64,000 nt of DNA from Picochlorum sp. SENEW3 (GCA_034226945.1 CP120456.1:682001-746000); one strand, 5' to 3'; positions 1 to 28,888 are shown, counted from the stretch's first letter. Translations and numbers: made by a program. The notes: a model not told the origin generated them from the sequence alone.

Positions 1-911
1 TCCAGTACTTGACCTGTAGGGTTCCCTGGATTGATGACGGCAATAGCTCTTGGGCATTTTCCCGAGTCTCTGGCCTGTTGAATAGTTTGCCTGAGCTTAT
101 CGACAGTACACTGCCACCCATCCTGTTCTTCAAGGTAATATCCCACCATAGTCCCTCCTGCAGTATCCATATAACAATCATATATAGTATCATTTATACG
201 GAATGTATTACTTCACACCATACATACCATACAGACTCAAAGTTGCAGAGTACAGGGGATACTGAGGGATGGGCACCAGCACAGCGTCATTCTGGTTCCG
301 AATAAGAATCCTCATGATATAATTCACAGAAGCGCTGGCACCATCTGTCAACCATATATTGTCAACTTCACATGGGTACCCGTCTCTCTCAGAGATACCT
401 TTTGCAACATGCTCGCGACAGATCAAGGCACCCTTTGACTCACTGTAAGCCCCAGTACCACCCTTGATGTTGGACAGGTACTCCCTGGCCCTCGCCAACA
501 CATCGTCAGGGAAGATTTTCTTCGCCTCTTCCTTCTCTAAGAGCTGCATGCACAAATATGACTAAGAGCTCATTTGACGTTGCGCAAAACCCCCGACCCT
601 GAACCTACCTCAGGATAGTCACAAATCGCCAAAACCTGACGAAAGAAGGAGATTGGTTTCTGTTCAAGAATTTGAGGATTACCTACGCAAATCAAATGCG
701 ACGATCAGAGGGTGGCACACGCTTGAGTCGAAGTTGAGACCAACGCACCAATGTTACACTGAACAAGGCTCTCGAAGCCAAGATCTTCCCCATTCCGTAA
801 TTTTTCTCCATGTTGTTGCGCTTTAACGGCAATGGCACCTCGAACAGCATATTCTGCGGCAACGACGTTTGGGTTGATGTTGCTCACGTCGAGAGTAGGA
901 GTTTTTGACAT
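1..911 (-). CDS. Alanine aminotransferase / glutamate:glyoxylate aminotransferase family (class I PLP), 3' end runs off the window
   Basis: Spliced exons (911-749, 682-609, 543-228, 157-1) give INPNVVAAEYAVRG, CNIGNPQ..QKPISFFRQVLAICDYPE, LTDGAS, PIPQYPLYSAT and VINPGNPTGQVL. The N-terminal motifs look closer to AlaAT than to plant GGAT. Confidence 0.9.
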
Positions 912-1241
912 GGTTGTCCTTGTATGTCGATATGTATCTCAGAAAATGTTACGATTGAGTAAACGATAGATTATTAGTAATAGATCTCTATCCATCGCAT
1001 CTGATACTATCCTCTACATTGTAGTAGTAAGATGGAGTACCCTAGTGGTTTGAGACCTCTGATAATTTGCTGAAACCAAACATTCACTTTCCTCGATGGT
1101 GAACCATCGACGACAGTGAACAGTAAAACCTTTGGCGATGGCCCTCAATTTTATGCATTTGATTTACAATATTTAATTCAATTAATCGGGGCTCTGATCG
1201 TCTATCAGAGAGTAGATCAGAGTATAGTAGTATTGATCGAC
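912..1241. promoter_or_regulatory. Bidirectional promoter between AlaAT/GGAT and AGXT
   Basis: 330 bp between divergent ATGs. Contains GTAGTAG (1021), GAGTACCCT (1035), ACCTCTGAT (1055) and further CTCTGAT/ATCAGAG copies. Confidence 0.55.
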
Positions 1242-2669
1242 ATGTTAGCCTCTGTATCCAGGGCGGCAAGAAGAGCCTATCCAGAGGCTCAGGCCTGTTT
1301 CAGGACTGTTTCTTCGACTCAGGCTGCTATGAATACCTCCCTAAGACCTGATGTACGTATTATCGAGGTGATCTGTTGAGTATGCCTGCATATTTGGAAT
1401 TTGTCCTGACGATCGATGTGACACGCGCAGGAAGAGATGCACGCGATTGATGAGTCAAGTAAAGGTCCATCTGGTGTGTTGGAAGTCCCCAGAAGGTTTC
1501 TGATGGGTCCTGGGCCGGCGAATGCCGACCCAAGGGTATTAAACGCGCAGGCTCTTCCTCTGCTTGGGCACATGTGCGTTTATTTTGGTCTGCCGTATAT
1601 TTGATTAAATTTGAGTGTCTAAATGCTAATGTTTTACAGGCATCCACCATTCTTGAAGATTATGGATGAGATCCAGGAAGGCCTCAGGTACCTGTTCCAG
1701 ACAAAGTCTCCATATACACTGTGTGTGAGTGGGACTGGTCATGCTGGTATGGAAGCTTGCATCGCCAATTTGGTGGAGCCAGGGGAGACTGTGATTGTTG
1801 GGAACAAGGGAATTTGGGGAGAACGTGTGTGTGACATGGCGGGAAGATTTGGCGCAAATGTTGTGGAATTGAAGAAAGAGGCAGGCAAGACATTTTCTTT
1901 TGACGAGTTGAAGGCGGCGGTGGAGAAGGAGAAGCCAGCAGTGCTCTTCTTGTGCCAAGGAGAGTCATCTACTGGAGTGCAACAGAGTCTTGCAGGGCTT
2001 GGTGATTTGTGCGAAAAGAATGGCACTCTGCTCTTGGTGGATACCGTCTGTTCCTTGGGTGGAGTTCCATTGTTTGCTGATGAGTGGAAGGTGGATGCCA
2101 TTTACAGTGGAAGCCAGAAATGCTTGTCTGCCCCACCTGGTGCTGCCCCCCTTTTCCTCAGCCAGAGGGCTTTGGACAAGATCAAATCACGCAAGACAAA
2201 AGTGCGCAGTTATTATTTGGACATGAATCTGGTGGGTGACTACTGGGGATGGTATGGCAGCAGAAGCTATCATCACACTGGAATGGTGAGCATGTGGTAT
2301 TCGATGAGAGAGGCGTTGGCCCTCGTCGCCGAAGAAGGGCTTGATGCAATGTGGAAAAGGCATCAATCTGTCCACGAGCAGCTCTGGGCAGGATTGAGCG
2401 AGATGGGATTGAAGCCTTTCGTGGAGGATCCAAAAGATCGTCTGTGCACTGTGAACACCATCAAGGTTCCAGAGGGAGTTGATTGGGCTGCAGTTTGCAA
2501 AAACGCAATGGACAAGTACGAAGTAGAGATTGCTGGAGGACTTGGACCAAGCGCAGGAAAAGTTTGGAGAATTGGACTCATGGGGTACAATGCTACCCCT
2601 GCCACAGTTGAATTGGTTTTGGCAGCTTTCAAGGATGGCTTGACCAAGCAAGGATATCTTCCAAAGTAA
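1242..2669 (+). CDS. AGT: Alanine:glyoxylate / serine:pyruvate aminotransferase (AGXT-type, class V PLP) with mitochondrial-type presequence
   Basis: Exons 1242-1352, 1431-1573, 1640-2669. Motifs LMGPGPAN, LGHMHP, SGTGHAGME, QGESSTGV, DTVCSLGG, SGSQKCL (PLP Lys), YHHT, GKVWRIGLMG. N-terminus MLASVSRAARRAY; C-terminus YLPK is not a PTS1. Confidence 0.93.
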
Positions 2670-2760
2670 ATTGCATGTTGCAAAAACTATGGTTCGATTT
2701 TAGAAAAAATGTAAAATCATTACGTTTATGAGAATCAAAGAAATGAAAGCAAATGAAAAT

Positions 2761-3941
2761 TTAATTATTCAAAAGGGTTTGCATCTTATCCACCGTGTAC
2801 AGCATTACACCATTAGCAGGGGCAGCTCGTAGCAAACATGGAGTAAATCCTCTATAAAATCGCCCCACACCACCTTCACTCCATAAAGATTTCATGGTAG
2901 ATACGAAGTTTGGATACTTTCTTTCAGAGGGAATGATTGAGTCAGTCATCATTGCACTCTTAATCACATCAACTGGATAAATGGCCAGCCAGTACATGAT
3001 TCCACCCAGGCCACCAGCGCCAATAACAACAGGTGCAGAGAGGTCTTTAACTTCACAATTTTGATGCTCTGCCATCTTCCTCTTCATTACCTCAAATGAT
3101 CCCAGATAGATTGCGTTAGCTGGCGTATTCCTGAGTATTGTTGGCCCGAGTCCCTGGAATGGACCTTTGATGCCAGATGTGGCAATAGTTGCCTTAACAC
3201 ACTGAGTTACTGTTGTATAAGGAGCTGCAGTTGTACAAAAAATAAATAAATGTCGTGAATCCAGTGATCAACAAAATTGAATGGAGAAAAACTTACGCTT
3301 GTAGGTAGGATCAGACTTTGCCCTGATAATCTGGACTTGGATCTGCGATTTATAAAAATCTATCGGAGCTTCCGTGAATGCCGCAAGGAAACCCGTTATC
3401 ATACCAGCCTTGTAAAAATCGAGCGTTGTCAGAGTTCTGGTAGTCCCATCTGCATTGGTACCCAGCCATCTCTTTGACTCTCCAAATGCACTGAACAATG
3501 TGGCTCTAAAGAGCATTTGCCCAGCAAGAGGCGATGCAACTCCCTATAGAGTAAATTATACACACAGTGTCATAACAATATTGTATCATCCAACACAAAA
3601 GCCATTCTGCATACCTTGTACAAACCTCCAACTCCTTCCCACTGGAGAGTCTTCTTCAAGCAATCAAAGGCTCCAGAATACACAGGATTCGTTGCGGATT
3701 GTGTCTGTAATCTTACTTTGATAGTATCTACATACATACAGCAGCAATCGATGTTAATTACCGTAACGGATGGCATTGAACAGGTGGTGACCAGAGACAT
3801 ACCAAATGGGTGCCCAACTCCTACGACGGCAATGCCTCCGACAGTTCCAGCAGTACAATCCTTCAGGAATTTCACCACTCCATTGGATGGAGACAACTTA
3901 GCCGTACTCGTCGCCAGGTTTGGTGCTTGAGTCTGCTCCAT
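2761..3941 (-). CDS. Mitochondrial carrier (SLC25), carnitine/acylcarnitine-like subfamily that includes plant BOU and algal CCP1/2
   Basis: Three carrier signature repeats ([34 protein letters not shown]) and [25 protein letters not shown] across 4 exons. Confidence 0.85.
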
Positions 3942-4398
3942 GTGTAACCAAAATTGAAGTGCGACTCGGGAGAAACGAGGATTCCCGAGCGATCTACACC
4001 ACCAAATGAACAAAAAAAGCGAAAAAGACGAAAATGTATCTAGACTATCAAATCTTAATGGCCTTGTAAGCGATTCACACTGGTTTATGGGGCACTACTA
4101 TCTACAATCTGATGGTAGACTTTGTCCATTCTGCCTTGTGTGAACGGTGCATTGTGAGCCCTCAGCAGATTACATTCGTAGTTAAGCCGTGCTAACGAGG
4201 AATGTGGATGGATGCACTGGTTGCGTGAAGACATGAAGGTTTTATCCCTTAGTCTCAATAAAGTCTCAGTGCTAGGTTGATCACTCAACCATGGCCATGT
4301 TTAGCTGTGGACATTACCCATCATGTAGCTGCTGACAGCTGTCACCCTGATTATCTTTCTTTTACATTTCATCGGCGCTTTAGAAGACTGTTGATACC

Positions 4399-5150
4399 AT
4401 GCAAACCATCGTTCGTCGCCAGGGAGGCCGTTTCTATGGCGCTACATGTCGGTGGTTGAGTGACATGCCAACAACGCAAACGCCACCCCCGAACGCAGCG
4501 AGAGGAGCGACTGCTGACCTTTGTGATATTTATATTACCGATCCAGTGGATAAAGTAACACATGGGGGTGTCCAAATCGCACAGCCGATTTTCAAGTACG
4601 CTTGAGAAACCCAGCTCACTATGACCTTAGGGCTTATTTGTTGACAGAACAGGATATCTTCGATCTGCAGGGACCTCGGAGGCAAGATCAGGTTCAGTGG
4701 CAAGATCTCCACTGTTAAGTGCTTTGAGAATAACCCACTTGTGAGGAAAACGCTGGAGGAGGATGGACACGGTCGAGTGTTAGTTGTTGATGGCGGTGGC
4801 AGTTTGAGATGTGCACTGCTTGGTGATAACATCGCTGAGATGGCATATAAGAACGGTTGGGATGTACGTTATGAATCCCTTGTAGTTTGGTTAAGAAAGA
4901 AATTAGGTCAATGTTTTGTGAATTGCAGGGCATTATCATTCATGGTTGCATCCGGGATTCTGAGGACATTGGTAAGATGCCTTTGGGTGTCAAGGCACTA
5001 AATACTTACCCTCTGAAAAGTTCAAAAAGAGATGTAGGGCTTCGAGATGTTCCTTTGACGTTTGCAGGGTGCAATTTTGAGCCAGGAAACTATGTCTATG
5101 CAGACAAGGACGGCATCCTTGTCTCCAAAGAAGAACTTAAAGCAAATTAA
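4399..5150 (+). CDS. RraA-like / 4-hydroxy-4-methyl-2-oxoglutarate aldolase family protein with N-terminal extension
   Basis: Motifs [50 protein letters not shown] over 3 exons. The Arg-rich N-terminus [21 protein letters not shown] resembles a mitochondrial presequence. Confidence 0.9.
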
Positions 5151-5955
5151 TCAATTCATCAGCACTTCCAAGCATCTTCAGCGGCCTCTTTGTATCTCTT
5201 TGTTCATAACTAATTGTCTCGATGTCAGAATGTAAAGATATTCCTAGATCACTCGCGTTTATTTTTTCAATGCTCTTTTTCTTTGCCTTCATTAAATTTG
5301 CTAGGGTTGAATACCGAGGAGTATTCAGCCTCAAATCTGCAGTAACTACAGCTGGTATGGATACATCGATTGTCTGTAGACCGTCATCTATTTCCCTCGT
5401 AACTATTAGTGTATTTCGATCATTGCAATAGTCTACTTGCTTTGCCTGAGTTGCCTGGGCACACTGCATCAATCCAGCCAACATTTGACCAGTTTGACCG
5501 CAATCATCATCCACAGATTGCTTTCCAAGAAAGACTACATCACATGCTTTCATTTGAGCCACATGAGATAGTATTTTCGCAACCTGTAACTGTCTCAGTG
5601 GCTCCTCAGCCAATACGTGCACTGCCTCATCTACAGAACCCTTGGACAAGCCTGTCCTCAACACTTGGACAGCGTCCGCATCACCCACAGTCACAATGGT
5701 CACACCACTAAACACTTTGGATTCCTTTAATCTCAGAGCTTCTTCCAGAGCAATATCACAGAAAGGGTTCAAAGCCCACGCTACTTGAGAAAGATCCAAA
5801 GAACCCTGCATGTAATCAATAAGGCCTTCATCCCTCTTCCTCAACACTCCAATCCAAATCAATATCAGACATACCCCATCCTTATGTACTCGAACGATCG
5901 AGTTGTAATCAGGAACTCGCTTCAAGGCAACAAGGGCTCTTCGAAGAAATGACAT
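5137..5955 (-). CDS. ETFB: Electron transfer flavoprotein beta subunit
   Basis: Motifs VALKRVPD, NPFCDIALEEALRLKE, GKQSVDDDCGQTGQMLAG, REIDDG, DLRLNTPRY..L.N.MKAKKK. One stop-free 69-nt intron at 5806-5874. Confidence 0.92.
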   Translation of the reverse strand: MSFLRRALVALKRVPDYNSIVRVHKDGVCLILIWIGVLRKRDEGLIDYMQGSLDLSQVAWALNPFCDIALEEALRLKESKVFSGVTIVTVGDADAVQVLRTGLSKGSVDEAVHVLAEEPLRQLQVAKILSHVAQMKACDVVFLGKQSVDDDCGQTGQMLAGLMQCAQATQAKQVDYCNDRNTLIVTREIDDGLQTIDVSIPAVVTADLRLNTPRYSTLANLMKAKKKSIEKINASDLGISLHSDIETISYEQRDTKRPLKMLGSADELINLL

Positions 5956-6303
5956 AATCTCAAGGAATTCAACCTGAGCATCGAAATGGCAACTATCTTC
6001 ATCTCATCATGTGCGTATCTAAATATATTGATGGGATAATCAAGCTATTTGACGTTTTAAGCTTGACGTGGCCATGTCCAGCCGAGAGATCTAGATCTCA
6101 GATCTGAGGGCAGTCACATCAGGGACTAAACAATCAGCAAAATCGGTGCATGCATATGACTCAGGAAATTCACATGCGATTGAATATTCTCAATATTGTT
6201 TTATTTATCTGAGTTTCTGAACTCCCCCGAGTGTATCAGTCTTTTGCGTGTACCTTGTCTGTGGCATGAAAGAGCAACGGTGACTCAAGCGCAACATTTC
6301 AGT

Positions 6304-8846
<2,543 letters not shown>

Positions 8847-9196: not shown

Positions 9197-10584
9197 ATGT
9201 ACTCATGTTATATCAAAAATGCAGATAAGCAATTGGGAGCGTCTTTGAATCGCAATAAACAGTTATGGCAGCGTATTTCAGAGTCCCGGGACGGTTTGGT
9301 TACAGCTGCAGTTTCCTCTGAAACTGGATCATATGGTGTCTTCACTCTCAACTATGAGGCTGACAATGTGCGTGATATGATTGAGACAGCAGTTGGTTTT
9401 CGACTTTCACTGGTTCTTACTGTGTGGCCGTTTTTGTAGGAAGATCCAAGGTTGACCAGCACGTGGAAAAAGACTATGAATGTTGTAGTCACAGGAGCTG
9501 CTGGGCAGATTGCAAACCATCTTCTGTTTATGATTGCGTCAGGAGAAGTTTTTGGTAGAGATCAGCCAATTGCTCTTCATCTGCTAGGCTCGGAACGTTC
9601 CAGAGAGGCAGTGGAGGGAGTTGCAATGGAACTGGAGGATTCTCTTTATCCCCTTTTGAGACAAGTGATCATCGGAACGGATCCTTACAAGGTGTTCAAG
9701 GATGCCGATTGGGCTATTCTAATCGGTGCCAAGCCACGAGGTCCTGGTATGGAGCGAGCAGACTTGTTGGACATTAATGGTCAAATCTTTCAGGAACAGG
9801 GCAAGGCCATCAATGAGGTTGCTAGCAGGAACTGCAAGATGATGGTCGTAGGAAACCCCTGCAACACAAATGCAATGATTGCAATGGAAAATGCGCCTGA
9901 TATTCCGAGAGAGAACTGGCATGCTTTGACAAGACTGGATGAGAACAGGGCAAAATGCCAGTTGGGACTAAAGGCTGGAAAGTTCTACACATCTGTTACA
10001 AATATGTGTGTTTGGGGAAATCATTCCACATCACAAGTACCGGACTTTGTTAATGCCAAAATCGGGGGAAAGAGAACTCCCGCAGTTATCAAAGATACAC
10101 AGTGGTTGAAAGAAGAGTTCACACCTACTGTTGCCACGAGAGGTGCAGCTTTGATCAAGAAATGGGGAAGATCCTCTGGAGCATCAACAGCTGTATCTAT
10201 TGCTGATGCACTTCGATCCCTTTATACACCAACTCCTGAAGGAGATTGCTTCTCAAGTGCTGTCTGCACTGATGGAAATCCATATGATCTGGAAGGTACG
10301 AACTCTCATTCTCTCTCTGTCTATTGCATTATCTATATCTGATTCATGTATCGCTTATCATTTTTGTAGAGGGTCTTATTTTCAGTATGCCATGTCGATC
10401 AAATGGCGATGGAACATACGAGGTGATTGACGATTTTGTGATCGATGATTGGCTCAGATCAAAGTTGGAGGCAACCCAGCAGGAATTGATTTTGGAGCGC
10501 GACTGCGTTGGCCACCTGATTCCAAATTCTTCCAGAGCAGTGTGTACTATCAAAGAAGACACAATGTTGCCAGGAGAGAATTAA
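9197..10584 (+). CDS. NADP-MDH: Chloroplast NADP-dependent malate dehydrogenase
   Basis: Motifs [55 protein letters not shown]-terminal regulatory extension C...[10 protein letters not shown]. The N-terminal SYGVFTL lacks the land-plant Cys pair. Confidence 0.95.
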
Positions 10585-10648
10585 TCTTTCTCTGATATAT
10601 TGTCTTGCTGTTTTGAAATTCCATGAGAATTTTTTATCATACATAAAG

Positions 10649-11208
10649 TCACAATGTTTCATGTTTCTTCTTCCTTCTCCTGGTTTTGTGTGCTACCAAT
10701 AAATCATCCTTACTCGTTTTCTGTTTCTTTGGAGCTGAAAACATTTGACTTCGACCCATTTCTTCTTCTTCTTCCTCAACGTCTCCCACCGGGTCTTGTG
10801 ACTGGTTCCTTTTCAGTGTGGCACCAAGTTTACGCTCATGCTGGCGTTTAGAAGAGGACAGTCTTTCGGTCAAGTGCTCATCTACTTTCCATACACTCTG
10901 CATAGATTCCAATAATGGTCTTTCGAACCTTGCCAACGTATTACATTGCATATTCACCCACACCTTTTTCTTTGTTTTTGGTACTTTGTGCCGCCTATAT
11001 CCCAGCCCACTAAATTGTCCCAAGGCAGGCTCTTCTACCGCATCTGCTTGCTCAATCACCTCCTTTTCATTCGTACCAAGCCATTGCGCAGCCTGATCAG
11101 AAGACAACATATCAGTAAAACGCTTCAGCTACAAACAAGGAGCATATCGCATACCAGTCGTAGAGCCTGTCCTGTAGCAACCACTTCGTCCTTCTTCCTG
11201 CCACTCAT
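10649..11208 (-). CDS. Small charged, probably nuclear protein of unknown function
   Basis: Spliced model MSGRKKDEVVATGQALRL|AAQWLG..GLGY..EEEEEEMGRS..RRRKKK, with an acidic patch and an NLS-like tail. Confidence 0.55.
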
Positions 11209-11769
11209 ATCAATTGCTACTAGTATTACTCCTCAGATACATTGTTTCACTTGCGTTCAATCCGGAAAGAAACAACTGAATCTCAGAACTCCTGACTGCT
11301 CGTGAGTGCGCAAGTCCTATTCATCGAAGAGGCGCCAAAAATCACACTAATAATACAAATAATGCTTATTTTTGATACACTTGTTGCATAGGTGAAGGAA
11401 AGACTCGCGAGACCAGTGTATGGCAAATGCAAATGGGCATAGGGCGCCCCAGGATTTGAGTGCCCGGGGCCAATCGGCCCATTCCTGTATCTTTTGAAAA
11501 TAGAACCATAGAAGGATAAAGTGTGTTATACAAGAAAAGTTATTTCATTTCATTGATTTAATTGGAATTGAGCGATCGCATGCGGCATTCTATGAGGTTG
11601 CCAGAAACGAGCAACTTGAAAGAGCTCTTCCCCGGCAGTTGAAAAATCTTTGACCGGTTGTTGGCGAACAATATACATAGTTTTAGCCCCTATCTGTACA
11701 TTAAACGACTTCATCAAGGACTATTGAAAGCCATTTATCGATTGACAGTGGACATTTGTCGACCAATCC

Positions 11770-13851: not shown

Positions 13852-14146
13852 ACTGTATACTAAAATATACTTGACGCATCATATGTGGCGAGTGGGTTGC
13901 ACATCCAGAACTGGAATAGGAGACTTCCGGATGCATGCATCGCTGCATGGGAAGACCCCAAGAGAGCGCCTTGGACGAACCTGATTTCCAAACCCTAGAC
14001 AAGAGAAGGACAGCAAGGGCTACAAGTACATTATTTGAACAAATTAAATATATGAAAACAAATTAAAAGGATCTGTAAGATTTGAAAGGATTCTACTTGA
14101 TACCAGAAACGAATACACGTAGCGCCGGCGATACCCTCGATCACAG

Positions 14147-17100: not shown

Positions 17101-20100
17101 CAATTCCAATAAGTGAGGTCGAGCCTGCATCGGAAATTTGCAAAAGATTTGTGACGGGAGCAATGTCTTACGGGTCCATTTCTCTCGAAGCTCACACAAC
17201 CCTGGCGATCGCAATGAATTCCATTGGAGGAAAATCAAACACTGGAGAGGGAGGAGAAAATCCTCGACGGCTTGTGCCTAATGAGGATGGATCAAGGAAT
17301 CCTATGAGATCCTCGATAAAACAAGTGGCATCTGGGCGTTTCGGTGTTACAGCAAATTATTTGACCAATTCTGACGAGATCCAAATCAAGATATCTCAAG
17401 GTGCAAAGCCCGGAGAAGGTGGTGAACTTCCTGGTACAAAGGTCAAAGGTGATATAGGTACGCAGAATCTTTGTTGTTTGAACGCTGATGCTCATTCACA
17501 CCCGTCCTAAATTTTGATTTGATATTTCTCTGCAGCAAAAACACGAAAGTCGACAGCTGGAGTGGGACTCATTTCTCCCCCACCTCATCATGATATTTAC
17601 TCCATCGAAGATCTGGCGCAACTCATCTATGATTTGAAGAGCTCCAACCCCGATGCTCGTATATCAGTCAAACTTGTGAGTGAGAATGGTGTAGGTGTCG
17701 TCGCATCTGGTGTTGTGAAAGGCCATGCAGACCATGTCTTGATCTCTGGCCATGATGGAGGAACTGGGGCAGCCAAATGGACATCAATCAAGAATGCTGG
17801 TCTCCCTTGGGAGCTTGGGCTTGCAGAAACACATCAGACTCTCGTAGCGAATGATCTCAGGAGCCGTACTGTTTTGCAGGCAGACGGTCAGATGAAGACA
17901 GGAAGAGATATTGCAGTAGCTGCTTTGCTAGGTGCTGAGGAGTTTGGATTTGCGACTGCTCCTTTGATAACCATGGGATGTATCATGATGAGAAAGTGCC
18001 ACACAAACACTTGCCCAGTTGGTGTAGCTACCCAAGATCCTGTGCTGCGCGCCAAATTTGCAGGAGAGCCGGAACATGTCATCAACTTCTTGTTCATGGT
18101 TGCAGAAGAAATGAGAGAATATATGGCAGAGATGGGATTCAGAACTGTGACAGAAATGGTCGGTAGGGCTGATATGCTTGAGGTCGATGAGGAAGTCATT
18201 CAGGAGAATTCAAAGTTGTCAGGTGTCGATCTCTCAAAGATGTTGATTCCTGCCGCAACTATTCGTCCAGAGGCAAAGCAAACATGTCACATAAAGCAGG
18301 ACCATGGATTGGATACTGGATTGGACCCAGAACTGATTCCTTTATGCAAAGCTGCGCTTCCAGATGATGGAAGCCCAGCAGAGAGTGTTAAAGTCGAGAC
18401 CAAAGTATCTAATGTGAACCGAGCTGTTGGTACTACTTTGTCACACGAGGTGACGAAGAGATTTGGGGAAGAAGGCCTTCCAGCTGATACGATCCACATC
18501 AAGCTGGAGGGACATGCTGGACAATCCCTGGGTGCCTGGCTGTGCCATGGAATCACTATTGAGCTCGAAGGGGATGCAAATGATTATGTCGGAAAAGGCC
18601 TGTCAGGTGGTCTCGTTGCAGTGTATCCTTCGAAGAAGTCATCATTCTCCCCTGAGGAGAACATAATTGCTGGAAATGTCTGTTTGTATGGTGCTACAGC
18701 AGGTGAAGCTTACCTCAGTGGGGTAGCAGCAGAGAGATTCTGTGTACGTAATTCTGGAGCTCAAGCTGTTGTTGAAGGCGTGGGTGACCATGGATGTGAG
18801 TACATGACAGGGGGAACCGCAGTCATTTTGGGCAAGATAGGGAAAAACTTTGGAGCTGGAATGAGTGGAGGGCTTGCGTTTGTCTATGACCCATCTGACA
18901 CCATGCATTCACTATGCAATGTAGACATCGCACAAGATCTCTATCCAATTGTTGAACAAGAAGATATAGACACATTGCACGGTTTGATCAGCAACCATCT
19001 GAAATTCACAGGATCACCGATTGCCCAGAGAATCCTGGAAAATTGGAAAGAGACTCTTCCTGCTTTCAAGAAAGTGTACCCAAGAGATTACAAAAATGCC
19101 TTGGAGGAACAAAAGAGGATTGAGAGTGCACAAGAAGAAGAGAAACAGCTCATGTCCGAAATGGTGCCAGGAGAAGATGCATTTGACACTCTCAGGAAAA
19201 TGGCCAAAAGCATTGTGGACGATGGTGCCAAACTCAGCACGTCTCCAAGAAGAATTGTCTCACCGCCCACACCAAAGTTGTCAGCTGATCTGAAGGAGGA
19301 GTATGACCGTCTTCTCAAAGATGCAACAAGTGGCCTTCCTGTAGCAGGGAGGGAGCCAGTTTGGGATTCAGAGAGACCCAGAATTGTACAGAACGGTGAG
19401 ACACAAAAGCAGGGAGGATTCATGAGGTATGAGCGTGAGCCTTTACCCTATCGTCCAGTGGATGAGAGGTTGAAGGATTATAACGAAGTACTTGCCCCAT
19501 CTGCAAACGGAACAAATTCAGATCTCTTGAAAACACAGAGTGCCAGGTGTATGGACTGTGGTACCCCGTATTGCCTCAATAAGGAAACTGGATGTCCACT
19601 CGGAAACCTGATTCCGGAGTGGAATACATTGGTCTGGCAAGGAAGGTGGAAAGAGGCAGCAGACAGGTTGCTTGCTACAAATAACTTCCCTGAATTTACA
19701 GGCAGGGTCTGCCCGGCTCCTTGTGAAGGCTCTTGTGTCCTCGGCATTAATCAGAATCCAGTCACCATTAAAACCATGGAAGTCTCGATCATTGATAAAG
19801 CATTTGAGGAAGGCTGGATAGTTCCACGCCCCCCAAAGACAAGAACTGGAAGACGAGTAGCTATCATTGGCAGTGGTCCTTCAGGAATGGCAGCGGCTGA
19901 CCAGTTGAACAAGATGGGTCATGCTGTGACAGTGTTTGAAAGAGCTGACCGTATTGGGGGATTGATGATGTATGGTGTACCAAATATGAAGACTGGCAAG
20001 AAGGAGATTGTTCAGAGAAGGGTTGACTTGATGGCCGATGAGGGCGTCAAATTTGTTACAAATGCATCTGTGGGCAAAAATGTGGATGTGAAACTTCTGA

Positions 20101-20981
20101 AAGCAGAATCTGACGCTGTCATTCTTGCTGCTGGTGCTACCAAGCCAAGAGACTTGCCCATCGAAGGAAGGGAGTACAATGGCATTCACTTTGCGATGGA
20201 ATTTCTGACTGCAAACACGAAAAGCCTGCTTGATTCGAACCATGCAGATGGCAAGTACATTTCAGCCAAAGGCAAACGTGTTGTAGTAATTGGTGGTGGC
20301 GACACAGGAACAGATTGCATTGGCACATCTGTGAGACACGGGGCAACAGAAGTAATCAATCTTGAGCTCCTAAGCAAACCTTCAGACACGAGATCTGAGA
20401 GCAACCCTTGGCCATACTTCCCACGAGTATTCAAGGTTGACTATGGCCATGCAGAGGCATCCCATGCCTTTGGTAAGGATCCAAGGGAATATGATGTTCT
20501 CACAAAACGATTCATTGGAGACGAAAATGGAAATCTGAAGGGCATTGAGATCGTTGATGTTGTCTGGACGCCACCTCAGAATGGAGGAAGGCCTACATTT
20601 GAAGAGGTGGAGGGAAGCAGTAGGATCATTGAAGCAGATCTGATACTGCTTGCTATGGGATTCTTGGGACCAGAAGAAACCCTCGCAGAGGCTCTGGGCA
20701 TTGAATGTGATGAGAGATCAAACTTCAAAGCCCAGTATGGTAACTTTGCCACGTCAATAGATGGAGTATTCGCTGCAGGAGATTGCCGCAGGGGCCAGTC
20801 CCTCGTCGTTTGGGCTATCGCGGAGGGTCGCGAGGCAGCTGATTCTTGCCACAAGTATCTGATGACTAAGGATGCATCCTTCCCTGATGATACAGATGAA
20901 TTTACAGGAGGGGTGATTGATCTCGACACATTTGAGAGCACAGGAGGACTATTGGGAGCCTCTGGTGCAGTAGCAGCATAA
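14147..20981 (+). CDS. GLT1: NADH-dependent glutamate synthase (NADH-GOGAT), plastid-targeted
   Basis: Transit exon 14147-14350, mature start [46 protein letters not shown]. Fused beta domain [26 protein letters not shown] and GSGPSG. Confidence 0.97.
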
Positions 20982-21000
20982 ATTGTAAGTACATGTACAT

Positions 21001-22405
21001 TTAAGACATTTTCAAATTCAATTCCTTTGCATTGACAATAGATGGGGCTGCCTTTGGAATAGATTCAAATGGTCCGTCAACAAAGCCCAACACATCTGGC
21101 TTGTTCCACACTGGATAATCCTGCAAAATTGCAGCAACATTGCTTGCTGCAAGTGTTGCCATGCCAGACCTTGTCCATTGCGTCGCAGACGCAATATGAG
21201 GGACAATGACAGCATTCTCACACTCTTTGAGCCCTGGTTTCATCAATGGCTCGTCTTCGAAAACATCCAAACCGACTCTGAACTCTGGATTTTTCTTCAA
21301 GTGAGCAACCAAGGCAACCTCATCAATGACAGGTCCACGTGCTGCATTTACAAGCACTGCATTGGACTTCATCATATTCAATTTCTCTTCATTGATCAAA
21401 TGTTTGGTGTTTTCATCCAGGTTACAGTGCAGACTGACGACATCCGACACCTTCAAGACCTCCTCCACAGTCCCACACCGAGTCACTGTGATCTCATCCC
21501 CACCTTTGCTCTGAACCAACTTGGAGTAATCTTTGACATACTCCTCCAAAAATTTGTTCTCAAACGGATCATAATACACAAGATTCATCTTATGCCCTTC
21601 CACCATCATTCTGGCATACGCAGTACCAATCCTTCCTGCACCAATGATGCCCACAGTTTTACCCTGTAAAAGGTTTCCGACAAAAAGAGTTGGAAGCCAT
21701 CCCTTGTACTTTTCCGCCCGCATAAAGCTATCTCCCTCTACAACTCTTCTCGCAGCAGCAAATGTCAACGCTGCTGCAAGCTCAGCAGTCGTCTCCGTCA
21801 ACACCCCTGGAGTATTACCAACTGGAATACCGCGAGCAGTTGCCTCTGGAACAACAACATTGTTATACCCTACTGCATAATTACTGAAAGCTCTTCCACC
21901 CGCTTTCTTCAATGCTTCAAACAATTCACTTCCCCAGTCTTCCGTAAGCTGCCCAATCACCCCATCACAAGAGTTCCCGATAAATTTCACAATAGTGGCA
22001 TTATCCAGAATTGTCTCTGGAGACTGAGAGATTTCAACTCTGCACCCAGCAGAGGCCAAAATCTGCTTCCATCGATCCCCAGGAAGATTTTTTGTCACAA
22101 TCACTCTTTTGGCTCCTTCTGGATTCACAACCTGCGATCAAACGGCACAATGTCAGAACAGAATCCCAGAAAGCCCCAGTAGTAGACTCCTACAACGATC
22201 CCGCCAACACCCCACCAAACCCGCATCGATTCCCACAATGCTACCCATAAATATATAGATCAGCATTTCATATAAAAAATCATACCTCCACTGGGATCCC
22301 ATTGACCGTTTCTGTAGCCATTGATCGCACCGACTGGACACTCAACCCAAGGTTTTGTCTCGTAGATGCTGCTGTACGATACAATGCACGTGCGATTCTG
22401 TTCAT
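21001..22405 (-). CDS. HPR1: Hydroxypyruvate reductase (plant HPR1-type) with mitochondrial-type presequence
   Basis: Motifs NPEG.KRV.VTK.LPG.RW, DGVIGQLTEDWG, FSNYAVGYNNV, GNTPGVLTETTAEL, GAGRIG, VPHIASA..WTR.GMATLAA. Exon 1 MNRIARALYR..VRSMA; C-terminus LKMS (no SKL). 154-nt intron at 22132-22285. Confidence 0.95.
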
Positions 22406-22601
22406 GATGAATACAACACGAATAATGTTTTTTAAAAACAGTGTCGACATCCCCATCGCTGATGTGGACATTTAAGCAGCGGCCCCTTCCGAGCGAATTC
22501 TTATTCTATTTATACAAGGAACTTTTTTGCGCTTGGTGGTTGGACCGTGTGTTTTACTTTGGCAACACGTCGGATATGTATTCTGTTTGAATATTGTTGT
22601 G

Positions 22602-23633
22602 ATGGAGAGTGTTTTTGAATCGTTTGGACTGAGTTTTGTAATCTCAAATCCACGCGAGCAGGACAATCCAATTGTGTATGCCTCAGAGAACTTTTACAAG
22701 ACAACAGGATACTCTCCAAAAGAAGTCATTAACCGAAATTGTCGGTTTTTACAAGGTAAAGATACATCCCGACAGAGTGTGTGCGAGATTCGGGATGCCA
22801 TTCGGGAGGAGCGAGCTACGTCGACGTGTCTTTTGAATTATAGAAAGAATGGTACCCCATTCTGGAATGCTTTTCATCTAGAACCTGTGAAAGATGTCCA
22901 TGGGATGACGGAATTTTACATCGGGGTCCAAGTCGACGTAACGGAGATGTTCAAGAGTGCTTTGGGAGAGGCTGCAGTGTCTGAATGTTCAAAGGATGTG
23001 TGTAGTAAGGCACAGCAGTTGGCGGATGAGGTGAAAAAGTATGCCGACAAGCTTCATGAGAATGCGCGTGTTAGTGTAGCTGTTGCTGACTCTATACCGA
23101 GTCCTCTTCTGTCAGGTTTGTCAACAATCAATCATGCATTTTGTTTGACGGATCCCAGCATCCCGGGTAATCCAATGGTATATTGTTCACCTGGGTTTTT
23201 ACGTATGACGCGGTATTCGAGTTCGGAGTTGATTGGAAAGCCGTGCTCGATGCTGCAAGGGGAATTGACAGATCAGAAAGAGGTGGAGAAAATCCGGGCT
23301 GCTATTCATCATGAGCCGCCTCGGCCAGTATCGGCTTGTTTGGCAAATTATAGAAAGGATGGAGAGGTATTTATGAATTCTGTTCATATTGCACCGGTGA
23401 ATTGCTCATCAGGAAAGGTGAAGTATTTCTGTGGAGTTCAAAGTGAAGTTCCAATGAATGTAGATGAGGGTTGTAAGACGCGCAATCCATTGGTATTATT
23501 AAAGCAAAAGGGTGTTATAGGAGCTGTGCGAGTGGCGGCTCGAGGACTTGCCGATTCGGGGCTTGTGAGAAAGCCAGATCATCAAGTGCCATGCAATAGT
23601 GTTCTGAATCCTGATAAATTAATGGAGAAATGA
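22602..23633 (+). CDS. Twin-LOV (LOV/LOV, PAS/LOV; TLP1/LLP-like) blue-light sensor without an effector domain
   Basis: LOV1 DNPIVYASENF..NRNCRFLQG..NYRKNGTPFWN; LOV2 GNPMVYCS..GKPCSMLQG..NYRKDG. C-terminal GVIGAVRVAARGL resembles the plant TLP1 tail. Confidence 0.88.
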   Translation: MESVFESFGLSFVISNPREQDNPIVYASENFYKTTGYSPKEVINRNCRFLQGKDTSRQSVCEIRDAIREERATSTCLLNYRKNGTPFWNAFHLEPVKDVHGMTEFYIGVQVDVTEMFKSALGEAAVSECSKDVCSKAQQLADEVKKYADKLHENARVSVAVADSIPSPLLSGLSTINHAFCLTDPSIPGNPMVYCSPGFLRMTRYSSSELIGKPCSMLQGELTDQKEVEKIRAAIHHEPPRPVSACLANYRKDGEVFMNSVHIAPVNCSSGKVKYFCGVQSEVPMNVDEGCKTRNPLVLLKQKGVIGAVRVAARGLADSGLVRKPDHQVPCNSVLNPDKLMEK

Positions 23634-23715
23634 TGTGTTCGTGTAAAATAGACGTAGATGATTAAACGAATAAAAATGAAAATTTAGCATAGAAAAAAAA
23701 AAGGATTCCTTGTCT

Positions 23716-26700
23716 CTATGAGGAAGAGGAGGTTTCTTTTGGTTTTGGCTTTGTTGCTTCATCAACGAGGTACACAAGTCCTCTGAAGTGCATTCCTGAA
23801 TGGTTACTCAGAGACATTTCGCACGTTCTCGACGTAGAATATCCATCAGAACATCCTGCGACGTTGAGATGCTGGAGGGAGGACGAGGTCAATTCTGGGT
23901 ACCTCATTCCCCTGTCACCAGCCATACCACAGCATGGAATGTTGGATGGAACCACCTCATCAGCACACATGGATGCTACCTTCATGAACGACTCCTCAAT
24001 GCCCATTTTCTTTGAAGAACATGGAACATGGATGGCTACAGTATCCCTGACCTTTGAGAAGTCCAACTTATCGAGCATGAAGTGCCTGATAAACTCCACT
24101 GGTTCATACAGAGAGAAACGCAGTGCTGGGTCAGACAAACCGGATTTGATCTGAGCCAAGCATGGCGATGTGTCGCACACGATTGGGTACTTTCCATTAT
24201 CTGATGCTTTCAGCAAAGCTGCCTCGAGTTCAGATCCCTTCTTTGCTGCTGCATCCTTGAAACCTCTGCTGTTAAACATCATACCACAGCAGGATGATGA
24301 CAATCCCTCGGGATACACCACCTCATACCCTCCTTTTTGGAAGATTGACAACAGCTTCTCATGCACACTTGCATTTTCGGTATCGTTCTTAGCTGGTCCC
24401 ATGATTCGTGTCACACAGGCAGGAACATATACCACCTTTCTTGGGATGCCCTTCTCAGCTTCAACCGAGACTTCTGGAGCGGGTGGATTCATGTTCAATG
24501 GAGATGCAGCCTTTGGCATGTATGGGTTCCATTCTGGTACCATGTGTCCTGAAATCTTATTCAATGCTCTGGAAATAGTTTGAAGAGGCCATGGTCCGAG
24601 AATTTGATGGGCCACATTGACAGCCCCAAGGAGTTTGTTAAATGTCCAAGCTGTTGCTCCAAAGTTATTTGCAACCATATCAGCCACCTTGCTTGCCTTT
24701 GGCATTTCATCCATTGCTTCGCTTCTGATATGTTTCACTAATTCACCTGTGTTGATCTTCACAGGGCATTTCTCTTGGCACATACCATCAGCGGCACATG
24801 TATCAATTCCATCGTACTCGAAAGTCTTTGACATTTCCGCAAGCCTTTTTTCTTGCTCTGGCGTCCTGGATGGGATTGACTTCAATCGATAAATTTCCTT
24901 GAATACAGCAATGCGCTGTCTTGGCGTCAAAGTGAGATCCCTTGATGGACAGTTGCTCTCACAAAATCCGCATTCAATACAACGGTTCACGAGCTTGCTT
25001 GCTGTTGGGGATGGCTTCAAATTCTTCACATGCACCATAGCATCCTCATTCAAAATTACGCCAGGATTCAGCACATAATCAGGGTCAAAGATTTCCTTCA
25101 GCTCCCACATCAATTCAGTTGCCTTGGCACCCCACTCCATCTCAACATATGGGGCCATGTTTCTACCAGTTCCGTGCTCTCCTTTCAGAGATCCTCTATG
25201 CTTCACTGCAACAATGTGGCACATTTCATCCATCATGTCCTGGAAACGCTTCACTTCTTCTGGTGTACGGAACCCTTGAGAGAAGACAAGGTGCAAGTTT
25301 CCTTCGAGTGCATGACCAAAGCAGGATGCATCATGGTATCCATGCTTTTCAAACATTTCAATGAGATCCATAGTCATGTCACCGAGCCTATCAGTTGGGC
25401 ATGCAACATCCTCCAGAAGCATCGTCGTTCCATCCTCTCTCGCTCCTCCAACAATAGGAATGAGACCCTTTCTCACATCCCAGTACACCTTGGCATCCTT
25501 TTGGTCGTGCTTAAACTCATATGCATCTAAAGATGTCTCCTTGCCAGGAGCAGGTCCAAATGGAAGTTGAGATCCTTCCAGCGCTACTCGAATCTCTTCA
25601 ATACGAGCCTTCAAATCTTCTTCAGTTTGACCTCTGCATTCAATCAATAGAGCTGCAGCCATTGAGCCACACCCATCAATATCTGGTACCAGGCGAGTCA
25701 TGTCTTCATTCCCAGCACACTCCCTCAATGAAGCCCTGTCGAACATTTCTACAGCATCTACGGATGTTTGAGATCTAAGGACAGCAGCTGCTTGGCAGGC
25801 GGCCTTCACGTGAGGGAACATGACGAATGCAGATGCCTTATTTGGCCACTCTGGCACTGTATTGTAGGTCACCTGTGACACAAATCCCAATGTTCCTTCG
25901 CTTCCAATGATCACTCTCTTGATAATCTCAATCGGATCATCTACTGGAAAATCAACCAAAGCGTTCAAAGAATACCCAGTCGTGCACTTGATGGCAAACT
26001 TTCTGCGAATAAGAGAAGCCAATTGCTTATCCGACTGCACTCTCTTGGCCAAGTCCACCACATTGCTCACCAAATCAGCATGAGACTTCAAAAATGCCTG
26101 CTTACTTTCCTCGCTCGATGTATCCAACACAGTACCATCAACAAAAACCACCCGAAGATCCTTCAACGTGTGATATGTATTCTGTGATACACCGCAGCAC
26201 ATTCCAGAGGAGTTGTTAGACACAATTCCTCCAATCATGCATGAATCGATAGATGATGGATCTGGACCAATTTTATACTGTACTGGAAGCTTGTTCTTCA
26301 TCTTGTGCTGTGCCAAAATCCTATTCACCTCACCCCCAATCAACCCGGGCTCGACGGTAATGCTGCTTCCATCCCCATGAACTGTGAAATTCCTAAAATT
26401 CTTACCAGTGTGTGAAATCTTCACCAAAACAGAATCCGTCAAAGCCTGGCCAGACAAAGATGTACCGGCAGCCCTGAATGTAATAGGAACCCCATGCTTC
26501 TTCGCAATCGGCAACAGCTTGATCGCCTCCTCCTCCGAATGCATCTTGACCACCAACTTTGGATTCAAACGATAAAAACTCGCATCTGTCCCATACGCAA
26601 AAGTCCTCACCGGATCCGTGAATTGCCTTGTCTTGGGCACAAACTCTGAAATCTCCTCGATAAATGCGGCATACCTCCCATCTTCAATTCGACGCCCATC

Positions 26701-27054
26701 CATGTTTTCAAATGCCGTCACCTTGCGATCAAGCTCGTGAGGCTCCACAATGGAAATAGCCCCAACCTCATCAATATGAGTCAATGGTAACGCAGAAGGC
26801 TCAACCTTGGTCTCTACCATCTGTTGCGCAGCTGGTTGCGATGCTGCTGGTCGGGTTTGCTGAAAGCGTCCATGTCCACCACGGAATTCCTCAAAGTTCT
26901 CCAACCCCTTCTTTCCCTTGCCCTTACTCACCAGACCTCGAGAACTGGTATTCAACAACCCATATGCATTGTTATCAGCAGAAACACTACCACCAGCGCC
27001 CCTCTTGGTGACAACAAGATTGTCCAACACGCGTGACACAAGGCGTCGTCTCAT
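23716..27054 (-). CDS. GYD1: Glycolate dehydrogenase / FAD-Fe-S D-lactate dehydrogenase (GlcD plus GlcF-like fusion, algal GYD1 type), intronless
   Basis: Motifs YGTDASFYRLNP, FRAAGTSLSGQA, GPDPSS, GSEGTLG, GHALEGNLH, KGEHGTGRN. Ferredoxin motifs CIECGFCESNCP and CAADGMCQEKCP, two CCG domains. Arg-rich N-terminus. Confidence 0.9.
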   Translation of the reverse strand: MRRRLVSRVLDNLVVTKRGAGGSVSADNNAYGLLNTSSRGLVSKGKGKKGLENFEEFRGGHGRFQQTRPAASQPAAQQMVETKVEPSALPLTHIDEVGAISIVEPHELDRKVTAFENMDGRRIEDGRYAAFIEEISEFVPKTRQFTDPVRTFAYGTDASFYRLNPKLVVKMHSEEEAIKLLPIAKKHGVPITFRAAGTSLSGQALTDSVLVKISHTGKNFRNFTVHGDGSSITVEPGLIGGEVNRILAQHKMKNKLPVQYKIGPDPSSIDSCMIGGIVSNNSSGMCCGVSQNTYHTLKDLRVVFVDGTVLDTSSEESKQAFLKSHADLVSNVVDLAKRVQSDKQLASLIRRKFAIKCTTGYSLNALVDFPVDDPIEIIKRVIIGSEGTLGFVSQVTYNTVPEWPNKASAFVMFPHVKAACQAAAVLRSQTSVDAVEMFDRASLRECAGNEDMTRLVPDIDGCGSMAAALLIECRGQTEEDLKARIEEIRVALEGSQLPFGPAPGKETSLDAYEFKHDQKDAKVYWDVRKGLIPIVGGAREDGTTMLLEDVACPTDRLGDMTMDLIEMFEKHGYHDASCFGHALEGNLHLVFSQGFRTPEEVKRFQDMMDEMCHIVAVKHRGSLKGEHGTGRNMAPYVEMEWGAKATELMWELKEIFDPDYVLNPGVILNEDAMVHVKNLKPSPTASKLVNRCIECGFCESNCPSRDLTLTPRQRIAVFKEIYRLKSIPSRTPEQEKRLAEMSKTFEYDGIDTCAADGMCQEKCPVKINTGELVKHIRSEAMDEMPKASKVADMVANNFGATAWTFNKLLGAVNVAHQILGPWPLQTISRALNKISGHMVPEWNPYMPKAASPLNMNPPAPEVSVEAEKGIPRKVVYVPACVTRIMGPAKNDTENASVHEKLLSIFQKGGYEVVYPEGLSSSCCGMMFNSRGFKDAAAKKGSELEAALLKASDNGKYPIVCDTSPCLAQIKSGLSDPALRFSLYEPVEFIRHFMLDKLDFSKVRDTVAIHVPCSSKKMGIEESFMKVASMCADEVVPSNIPCCGMAGDRGMRYPELTSSSLQHLNVAGCSDGYSTSRTCEMSLSNHSGMHFRGLVYLVDEATKPKPKETSSSS

Positions 27055-27455
27055 GGTATTACGACACTATGAAATCAATCAAATCAGTCTTAATGGAATA
27101 TAAATGAAATACCATCAATGGCATGGCCAGGGTCTGGGAGTCTCATAGTCAAAATCTCCCATCTGGATATCACCAATATATTGCTGTGGGTGGCGCCTTG
27201 TTCGTAGTAGACTAGTCTTCGTAGTAGAGTACCCTGTCCTTTGGTTCATCTCCAGGGCAAGTACTACAAGCATCATTGATATCAACGGATGGTAGATACA
27301 ATTACCTCTGATTTTGATATCTGAGAATTTAATAGAGTATTACTACGAGAAGAAGGGTCTCCTACCACGAACACATTGTATTCTGTCATACAGGCAAGGG
27401 TCTTTGTTGAAGCCGGATACAGTAACAAACACTACGACGAGTAATATCCGTGACG
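27055..27455. promoter_or_regulatory. Bidirectional promoter between GYD1 and SGAT
   Basis: About 400 bp between divergent ATGs. Tandem TTCGTAGTAGA (27201, 27218), GAGTACCCT (27227), ACCTCTGAT (27304) and several inverted CTACGA/CTACTA-like copies. Confidence 0.55.
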
Positions 27456-28888
27456 ATGATGTTGAGACAGTCTCGTAAAGTATCAAAGATTGTTCAGAGG
27501 GCAATGAGCTCTATGCCGGCCTTTGCGGAGGAGGTGTGTCGCTGTTGGTGACATGTGACATGTATTGGTGGTTTCTAAACCTCGTGAGTTTTGGGGTGTG
27601 GTGCTGATCAAATATTTGTTTTTGTATATAGGTTGCTTCTGAGGCAAAGAAAACCTCCACGAGGGCACCATTTTCGTATGAACCTCCTGGGAGGAACCAC
27701 TTGTTCGTTCCAGGTCCGGTGAATATTCACGACAATGTCTTGAGGGCTATGCATGTGGGTGGCCAGAATCACCGCGATGCTTGGTTCCCAGAGTTTTACA
27801 AGACGTGTTTGGAGGAGAGTAAGATGATCTTTGGCACGACTAAGGGTACTCCAATCTTCTGGCCTGGTACTGGAACTGGTGGGTGGGAAGCTGCTCTGAC
27901 GAATACGCTTTCTCCAGGAGACAAAGTCGTGACCTTCAGATATGGACTCTTCTCTCATCTCTGGATTGATATGATGCAGCGCCTCGGACTTGATGTGGAG
28001 GTGATTGACTGCAGATGGGGAGATGGAGCTGATGAGGAGCGTCTTGCAGAAGTATTGAAGGCTGACACTGAGAAGAAGATCAAGGCTGTGTGTGTCGTTC
28101 ATAATGAGACCACTACTGGTGTGACATCAGATATTGGTCATGTGAGGACGACGATGGATGAATTTTCTCATCCAGCAATGCTTTTGGTTGACGGTGTCTC
28201 TTCCATTGGAGCATTGGACTTTAAGTTTGATGAGTGGGGTGTTGATGTGGCCGTCACTGGTTCTCAAAAGGCACTCTCTCTTCCAACTGGTTTGGCTGTG
28301 GTGTGTGCTTCCGAGAAGGCCATTGCTGCGGGCAAGACTGCGACATCCAAGAGAGTGTATTTTGACTTTGCTGATATGCTTAGAACAAATCCATCTGGCA
28401 ATGTGCCATACACACCAGAGCTTCAGATGTTGTATGGCCTCAGGGAATCTTTGAAAATGTTGAGAGAGGAAGGTATGGAGAATGTCGTTGCACGTCATCA
28501 CCGCTTGGCAGAGGGAACCCGTCGCGCTGTGGCTGGATGGGGTCTGGAGACACTCTGCAAAAACCCACGCTGGTACTCTGACTCTCTGACTGTGATCGAA
28601 ACTCCTGAGGGGATTGATTCACAGAAGATTGTAGATATTGCGTACGCAAAGTACAACATGTCTTTGGGCATTGGATTGGACAGAGTCAAGGGCAAGGTGT
28701 TCAGAATCGGACACCTTGGAAACATGGATGAAATAATGCTGAGTGGAGCCCTTAGCGGCGTCGAATTGGCCATGAAAGATGCAGGTGTGCCAATTACTCT
28801 TGGAAGCGGTGTCTCCAAGGCCATGGAGTACTGGAGCGAGACAATGGAGGTCATCCCAACACGGGAGCACTTGGTGCAAGAAGCCTAA
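27456..28888 (+). CDS. SGAT: Serine:glyoxylate aminotransferase (plant AGT1/SGAT type) with mitochondrial-type presequence
   Basis: Exon 1 MMLRQSRKVSKIVQRAMSS, intron 27534-27631, then PGRNHLFVPGPVNI, GTGGWEAALTNTLSPGD, VHNETTTGV, DGVSSIGA, TGSQKALSLP, FRIGHLG. No C-terminal PTS1. Confidence 0.95.

Follow-up and report, generated by a model that had tools for sequence, protein, structure and literature searches.

We analyzed a 64,000-nucleotide stretch of the genome of the green alga Picochlorum sp. SENEW3 (GCA_034226945.1, CP120456.1:682001-746000), called the window below. Its left part, positions 1 to 28888, contains a cluster of genes of the photorespiratory C2 cycle. The window is gene-dense, and its G+C content is about 45%. 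Its gene content is that of a eukaryotic nucleus and includes TAF7, a subunit of the snRNA-activating complex, and a DEAH-box helicase of the splicing type. Positions 1 to 28888 hold 14 genes. Eight are linked to the pathway, and six are interspersed among them with no evident link to it. The core of the cluster consists of the genes for hydroxypyruvate reductase (HPR), a twin-LOV protein, glycolate dehydrogenase (GlcDH), and serine:glyoxylate aminotransferase (SGAT). HPR and the twin-LOV gene stand head to head, the twin-LOV gene and GlcDH tail to tail, and GlcDH and SGAT again head to head. The features are as follows, with the evidence for each in parentheses.

1..911, minus strand: AlaAT/GGAT-family aminotransferase, 5' part only (Aminotran_1_2; barley AlaAT2, 3tcm; exons and the ATG at 911 read from the frames).
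912..1241, no strand: head-to-head spacer of 330 bp between the AlaAT-family and AGXT-type genes (ATG positions).
1242..2669, plus strand: AGXT-type (class V) alanine:glyoxylate aminotransferase (Aminotran_5; 2huf; human AGXT; frames).
2761..3941, minus strand: mitochondrial carrier family protein (Mito_carr on two pieces of open reading frame; ATG).
4645..5001, plus strand: RraA-like gene, no evident pathway link (Pfam).
5137..5955, minus strand: ETF beta gene, no evident pathway link (Pfam).
6504..8784, plus strand: DEAH-box helicase gene, no evident pathway link (Pfam).
About 9301..10584, start approximate, plus strand: chloroplast-type NADP-malate dehydrogenase, NADP-MDH (7mdh, 1civ; contig joints; last exon).
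10427..11331, minus strand: gene with two introns and no Pfam family match (spliced contigs).
11746..13851, plus strand: gene with one intron and no Pfam family match (spliced contigs).
14412..20981, plus strand: NADH-dependent glutamate synthase (NADH-GOGAT) of the type with fused large and small subunits (Pfam; intron 17456-17533, joint in run X2).
21001..22405, minus strand: HPR1-type hydroxypyruvate reductase with an intron at 22130-22283 (2-Hacid_dh; named homologues; joint in runs X2, X7, and X8; frames).
22406..22601, no strand: head-to-head spacer of 196 bp between HPR and the twin-LOV gene (ATG positions).
22602..23633, plus strand: kinase-less twin-LOV protein (two PAS_9 domains; phototropin LOV matches).
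23716..27054, minus strand: GYD1-type GlcDH, an FAD oxidase fused to an Fe-S/GlcF-like part (Pfam; named homologues).
27055..27455, no strand: head-to-head spacer of 401 bp between GlcDH and SGAT (ATG positions).
27456..28888, plus strand: SGAT with an intron at 27532-27629 (6pk1; named homologue; joint in runs X2, X7, and X8; frames).
28932..29779, minus strand: gene without a family match that adjoins SGAT (its relatives lie near the cluster in metagenome contig L001, at 7543-7800, and elsewhere in contig L003, at 14849-15604).

All eight pathway-linked genes named in the initial annotation lie where it had placed them. It had called the carrier a member of the BOU subfamily. Our atlas and PDB searches confirmed it at the level of the Mito_carr family and gave no assignment to BOU, and neither did a literature search for Cre06.g295400.

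The three core enzymes were identified by named homologues. GlcDH contains FAD_binding_4, FAD-oxidase_C, and Fe-S domains (Pfam). It is 79% identical to the protein of Nannochloris desiccata and 78% identical to that of Chlorella vulgaris. With Chlamydomonas CHLRE_06g288700, which is GYD1 according to the part of PMC12174325 available to us, it shares 71% identity across 93% of its length. The fusion of an FAD oxidase with an Fe-S part and the homology to GYD1 place it in the GYD1 type. SGAT matches the Arabidopsis enzyme (6pk1) with an E value of 1.6e-145 and is 73% identical to Chlamydomonas CHLRE_01g005150. HPR is 75% identical to CHLRE_06g295450 (HPR1). It is 85% identical to a Picochlorum SENEW3 model named hydroxypyruvate reductase, and that model is 84.5% identical to the HPR of contig L001. 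The PDB matches of HPR were distant glyoxylate reductases only and said nothing on HPR1 versus other reductases; the named homologues decided the assignment.

The remaining enzymes were identified to varying depth. The AGXT-type gene matches the mosquito enzyme AGT (2huf) with an E value of 6e-119 and human AGXT with about 1e-100. It shares about 29% identity with SGAT and lies 25 kb from it. This bears out the initial annotation's view that the cluster joins unrelated families. The AlaAT-family gene extends past the left edge of the window, and about 200 N-terminal residues lie inside. Its best match is barley AlaAT2 (3tcm), with an E value of 6.5e-31, which places it by family only. NADP-MDH matches chloroplast NADP-MDH (7mdh, 3.6e-140; 1civ, 1e-138) far better than other malate dehydrogenase classes (1e-86). 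Its introns are at 9368-9439 and 10294-10367. Its last exon encodes a C-terminal extension with two cysteines, which are presumably the redox switch of this enzyme. This extension and the closer match to NADP-MDH than to NAD-MDH mark it as the chloroplast type. GOGAT contains GATase_2, Glu_syn_central, Glu_synthase, GXGXG, Fer4_20, and Pyr_redox_2 domains (Pfam). The protein thus combines the large-subunit domains with a fused pyridine-nucleotide oxidoreductase part, as in NADH-GOGAT. NADH-GOGAT, NADP-MDH, and the carrier may serve the C2 cycle here.

The twin-LOV protein has 343 amino acids and two PAS/LOV domains and contains no kinase. It matches phototropin LOV domains with E values of about 1e-34. 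The first domain retains the NCRFLQ cysteine motif, and the motif of the second is altered. Its nearest atlas clusters are LOV-only proteins of about 400 amino acids from streptophytes.

The cluster also contains the ETF beta gene, which is absent from contig L003. Some plant members of the FAD-oxidase family of GlcDH are said to hand electrons to ETF. A functional link between ETF beta and GlcDH is conceivable.

Genes for PGP, GDC, SHMT, and GLYK were not found among open reading frames of at least 150 amino acids in the window, in agreement with the initial annotation. At the same length threshold, the right half of the window (29-64 kb) contained no core C2 gene. The nearest gene in theme within that half encodes methylenetetrahydrofolate reductase (MTHFR; 37864-38562, minus strand). 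About 9 kb separate it from SGAT on its left, and L003 has it in a syntenic position (1-276). The enzyme acts in one-carbon metabolism, downstream of glycine cleavage.

The genes of the cluster occupy both strands, eight on the plus strand and six on the minus strand. The order alternates between head-to-head and tail-to-tail pairs. The AlaAT-family and AGXT-type genes are divergent, with 330 bp between their ATGs, and the AGXT-type gene converges with the carrier. Farther right, GOGAT converges with HPR, HPR diverges from the twin-LOV gene (196 bp), the twin-LOV gene converges with GlcDH, and GlcDH diverges from SGAT (401 bp). The three head-to-head pairs thus have spacers of 196-401 bp. The stop codons of GOGAT and HPR are 19 bp apart (20981-21001), and those of the twin-LOV gene and GlcDH are 82 bp apart (23633-23716). 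The 3' untranslated regions of these two pairs must therefore abut or overlap.

Contigs of runs X2, X7, and X8, which come from three studies, contain eight GT..AG or CT..AC exon joints. NADP-MDH and the gene at 10427-11331 have two each. The gene at 11746-13851, GOGAT, HPR (22129/22284), and SGAT (27531/27630) have one each. Run X1 gave contigs with full cover and zero joints, as DNA would. The spliced contigs are gene-sized. They cover, for example, GlcDH at 23670-26988, SGAT at 27630-28899 plus exon 1, and HPR at 21033-22401. One X2 contig crosses from the twin-LOV gene into the 3' end of GlcDH. It is no evidence of a single transcript, because these two genes are convergent. Runs X7 and X8 have no contigs on GOGAT or the two genes without a family, and X2 is gapped in GOGAT; nothing was read from these gaps or from the depth of the contigs, which carry no expression levels. 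The cluster is not an operon. It lies on both strands, its genes have their own introns, and the spliced contigs are separate. The term operon-like in the initial annotation thus fails in its transcriptional sense.

The AGXT-type enzyme, HPR, GlcDH, and SGAT have basic, presequence-like N termini. The AGXT-type, HPR, and SGAT genes carry this part on a separate first exon, and their translations lack a PTS1-like C-terminal tripeptide. The AlaAT-family protein starts without an N-terminal extension. Judged from the translations, the termini of the mapped enzymes fit the mitochondrial glycolate pathway of chlorophytes.

The grouping is real and not random, as the initial annotation had held. We simulated random gene order in genomes with an assumed 6,500-9,000 genes, for a cluster that had been chosen post hoc. 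The gene number of SENEW3 we take to be about 7,400. Three or more of 11 textbook core genes fell within four consecutive genes in 4-6e-5 of the simulated genomes. The same density was reached by a longer list, the 17 Chlamydomonas photorespiration genes in Table 2 of PMC8320531, in 2.4e-4 of simulations. At least 4 of these 17 fell within 14 consecutive genes in 3.7e-5 of simulations, and at least 5 in none of 300,000, for which the analytic expectation is 3e-7. The listed functions represented in the cluster are GDH, AAT, AGT, SGAT, and HPR1, with AAT and AGT placed by family only. Overall, the simulated probability of three core genes (HPR, GlcDH, and SGAT) within four consecutive genes is about 4e-5 to 4e-4. 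At the assumed gene number, at least three non-homologous genes of one pathway therefore lie closer than chance, as in a eukaryotic metabolic gene cluster.

We searched for the same linkage in relatives. An alignment of 16 green-algal GlcDH proteins was used as the query against metagenome contigs. It gave 80 loci, which were searched with the proteins of the window. In seven loci, GlcDH identity exceeds 72%. The other 73, at 72% or less, are more distant and mostly prasinophyte-like.

The core is retained in the close loci. SGAT is head to head with GlcDH in all four loci above 72% identity that have at least 1 kb upstream (L001, L003, L009, and L010). L009 and L010 are near-identical and apparently represent one lineage. 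A LOV gene is next after GlcDH in all three loci above 72% identity that have at least 1 kb downstream. The twin-LOV gene is at 13452-14441 in L001, 13761-14813 in L003, and 3288-4340 in L074. L001 (87% GlcDH identity) has the same order as the window: an S1-like gene, TAF7, an uncharacterized gene, SGAT, GlcDH, LOV, HPR, GOGAT, and the end of the contig. L003 (83% GlcDH identity) begins with MTHFR and then has the S1-like gene, TAF7, SGAT, GlcDH, and LOV. Beyond LOV are a relative of the uncharacterized window gene (29255-29779) and an open reading frame that is probably aquaporin-like, called from two NPA motifs in its translation alone. These are followed by the DEAH helicase, the carrier, and the RraA-like gene.

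The contigs differ in composition. The G+C content of L003 and L074 is 61%, versus 44-46% in the window, L001, and L009, despite 81-86% protein identity. The spacer between GlcDH and SGAT in L003 is rich in simple GC-rich repeats.

Named genomes agree in part, on the presumption that consecutive locus tags follow gene order. In Nannochloris desiccata, SGAT (g09646) adjoins GlcDH (g09647), and HPR is elsewhere (g04604). In Chlorella vulgaris, GlcDH (D9Q98_005775) adjoins SGAT (D9Q98_005776). Micractinium CCAP 211/92 has HPR (ABPG77_007856) and GlcDH (ABPG77_007858) with a single gene between them, as LOV is in the window. Equal lengths of the longest contig, such as 323881 for the GlcDH, HPR, and SGAT clusters and 552609 for HPR and SGAT of Micractinium conductrix, were suggestive only of a shared contig and were not counted.

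More distant algae lack the arrangement. The 73 loci at 72% identity or less contained no SGAT, HPR, LOV, or GOGAT (flanking sequence of 3 kb or more was present upstream in 29 and downstream in 37). In three of them with full flanks, GlcDH is flanked by class I aldolase, pullulanase, enoyl-CoA hydratase, tRNA-guanine transglycosylase, and ubiquitin hydrolase. A fourth has an LHC protein, an XPG-like nuclease, and a kinase. Chlamydomonas has SGAT on chromosome 1 and GYD1 and HPR1 widely separated on chromosome 6. GlcDH and SGAT are on contigs of unequal length in Volvox reticuliferus, Edaphochlamys, and C. eustigma, and so are all three genes in a pedinophyte.

Three prasinophyte-like loci (L028, L031, and L032, at 1-155) contain a fragment of a DEAH helicase 10 kb upstream of GlcDH. 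It is 78-79% identical to the window helicase over 38-51 residues. This may reflect chance or a very old linkage.

The synteny check proposed in the initial annotation thus came out in two parts. The core is linked in relatives, but the outer genes are variable, and neither the 73 distant contigs nor Chlamydomonas has the linkage. The pair of SGAT and GlcDH is on this evidence at least as old as the last ancestor that Picochlorum, Nannochloris, and Chlorella share, and it is not general to green algae. The outer members (GOGAT, NADP-MDH, the carrier, the AGXT-type gene, and the AlaAT-family gene) differ between lineages.

We put a probability of about 0.7 on the following reading. The cluster is a genuine, non-random neighborhood of C2-cycle genes that are transcribed separately, and it is of the same kind as the cluster already published for SENEW3. 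A short bidirectional promoter (196-401 bp) would serve both genes of a head-to-head pair, or the pairs would lie in one chromatin domain. Glycolate oxidation, two transaminations, and hydroxypyruvate reduction would then be switched together. GYD1 and HPR1 of Chlamydomonas are core photorespiratory proteins that are induced under CIA5 control (excerpts of PMC12174325), which makes a common switch plausible. Co-regulation of the cluster genes is inferred.

An unlikely alternative is neutral linkage. It holds that rearrangement in a small, gene-dense genome brought the genes together and that ordinary microsynteny retained them, with no regulatory or selective meaning. Several results weigh against co-regulation and toward this alternative. 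No 8- or 9-mer occurs in at least four of six cluster promoters or in all three head-to-head spacers. Two 7-mers were found among promoters and spacers, and both are AT-rich and present in the background too. The GlcDH-SGAT spacers of the window, L001, and L003 can be aligned only over SGAT exon 1. Spacers this short are in any case usual for such a compact genome. For six of the 14 genes, no link to the pathway is evident. Neighbors outside the pathway (TAF7, the S1-like gene, MTHFR, the DEAH helicase, and the RraA-like gene) are likewise syntenic among L001, L003, and L009. For TAF7, the S1-like gene, and MTHFR this holds at equal distances, so that part of the conservation is ordinary microsynteny. 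The 23 kb of L003 contain no HPR, GOGAT, or MDH, so the cluster has not stayed intact as a whole.

Other results count against neutral linkage. Three core genes in four consecutive genes are improbable per genome under random order, as given above. The head-to-head arrangement of SGAT and GlcDH has been kept in three contig lineages, and the two genes are adjacent by tag in two named genera. HPR is linked again in Micractinium. A second, independent neighborhood of a carrier and HPR has been kept across two green-algal classes (supplementary entries of PMC7826186).

A stronger version of selection would make the four core genes an old selected unit of the Chlorellales, with the kinase-less blue-light receptor as an integral member. 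We regard this as doubtful. The twin-LOV gene would share the 196-bp divergent promoter with HPR, and it abuts the 3' end of GlcDH. If this is true, light sensing and mitochondrial glycolate recycling would be wired together at one locus. The Picochlorum cluster would then be a looser ancestral linkage that was compacted around the core. The numbering of Chlamydomonas genes hints at such a looser ancestral linkage. Five of the 17 listed genes have chromosome-6 identifiers (Table 2 of PMC8320531): GDC-H (g253350), GDH (g288700), SHMT2 (g293950), AGT1 (g294650), and HPR1 (g295450). SHMT2, AGT1, and HPR1 are within 30 identifier steps, and the carrier (g295400) adjoins HPR1.

It is very improbable that the genes are non-photorespiratory paralogues, for example of dark amino-acid and glyoxylate metabolism, with the true C2 genes elsewhere in the genome. 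The gene search covered the window, and other copies may exist outside it. The AlaAT-family and AGXT-type genes are placed by family only. For photorespiratory ammonia, plants rely on a GOGAT isoform other than the NADH-dependent one. Against this, the best named Chlamydomonas matches of the three core enzymes are exactly GYD1 (71%), HPR1 (75%), and SGAT (73%). Those loci are listed and studied as photorespiratory in the sections of PMC12174325 and PMC8320531 (Table 2) at hand.

Joint acquisition of SGAT and HPR from a bacterium with a serine-cycle-like sga-hpr operon is still less probable: the closest bacterial SGAT relatives do have an HPR-family gene 0.2-3.7 kb downstream on the same strand in 45 of 68 loci, but the algal SGAT and HPR are parted by GlcDH and LOV and are not co-oriented, the bacterial HPR-family matches are only 27-40% identical, none of the 68 loci has a relative of GlcDH, and Chlamydomonas and 73 more distant algal contigs lack the linkage. 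The bacterial SGAT relatives have 37-61% best-segment identity, most of them 53-58%. They come from Gemmatimonadales, Betaproteobacteria, and Hyphomicrobiales, including Methylocapsa and Methylobacterium. Both the layout in the alga and the small range of taxa that share it speak against an operon that was retained. Because Chlamydomonas and the 73 distant contigs are without it, the linkage looks secondarily assembled within the Trebouxiophyceae.

The interpretation given in the initial annotation is thus partly supported. The literature check on novelty that it called for came out against novelty: such a cluster has already been published for Picochlorum. In the parts of PMC7826186 and PMC12198440 available to us, a functional cluster of photorespiration genes in Picochlorum SENEW3 is credited to Foflonker et al. 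2016 (Algal Research 16:465). PMC7826186 counts photorespiration among five previously reported functional clusters. According to PMC12198440, some SENEW3 functional clusters are co-expressed under salinity stress, and photorespiration is among those listed. The available portions of PMC12366059 and PMC11156908 contain nothing on a photorespiration cluster. We found no statement in the literature of the adjacency of SGAT and GlcDH in Chlorella or Nannochloris, or of a LOV gene in the cluster; the 2016 and 2018 Picochlorum papers may have it.

The cluster is a compact natural module for the study and engineering of algal glycolate recycling, a point made in 2016. Our results add the range of the core. 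The pair of SGAT and GlcDH, with HPR near it in some, reaches Nannochloris, Chlorella, and Micractinium and does not reach Chlamydomonas or prasinophyte-like algae. They also add the twin-LOV gene inside the core.

Clusters of primary metabolism are uncommon in eukaryotes, and four known systems can be set beside this one. The closest is the SENEW3 cluster of 2016. As in the window, photorespiration genes are co-located there, HPR and a mitochondrial carrier included (PMC7826186 supplement, as far as available). PMC12198440 lists it in one of its passages beside clusters for nitrate, urea, acetate, and glucose.

The second is the neighborhood of a carrier and HPR that Foflonker and Blaby-Haas 2020 give in the supplement of PMC7826186, in entries available in part. 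The two genes are adjacent or near each other in Chlamydomonas (Cre06.g295400/295450), Volvox, Chromochloris, Coccomyxa, and Chlorella variabilis. Both gene families are present in the window, the carrier matched at the family level, but here they are 17 kb and seven genes apart. The same supplement records that the Picochlorum pair missed the distance cutoff. This matches the 17 kb and the interposed pathway genes of the window.

The third is the nitrate-assimilation cluster of Chlamydomonas, Ostreococcus, and Picochlorum. It too is a eukaryotic primary-metabolism cluster of unrelated families with separate transcripts, and it is reported as co-regulated in passages of PMC7826186 and PMC12198440. 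It differs in serving another pathway and in being kept across classes, whereas the core of SGAT and GlcDH is limited to Picochlorum, Nannochloris, and Chlorella relatives.

The fourth is the bacterial sga-hpr operon. It resembles the cluster in the linkage of SGAT to an HPR-family gene, seen in the 45 loci above. It differs in that its genes are co-oriented and compact and include no GlcDH, whereas the algal genes are monocistronic, spliced, and divergent. The SGAT and HPR steps have been linked independently in bacteria.

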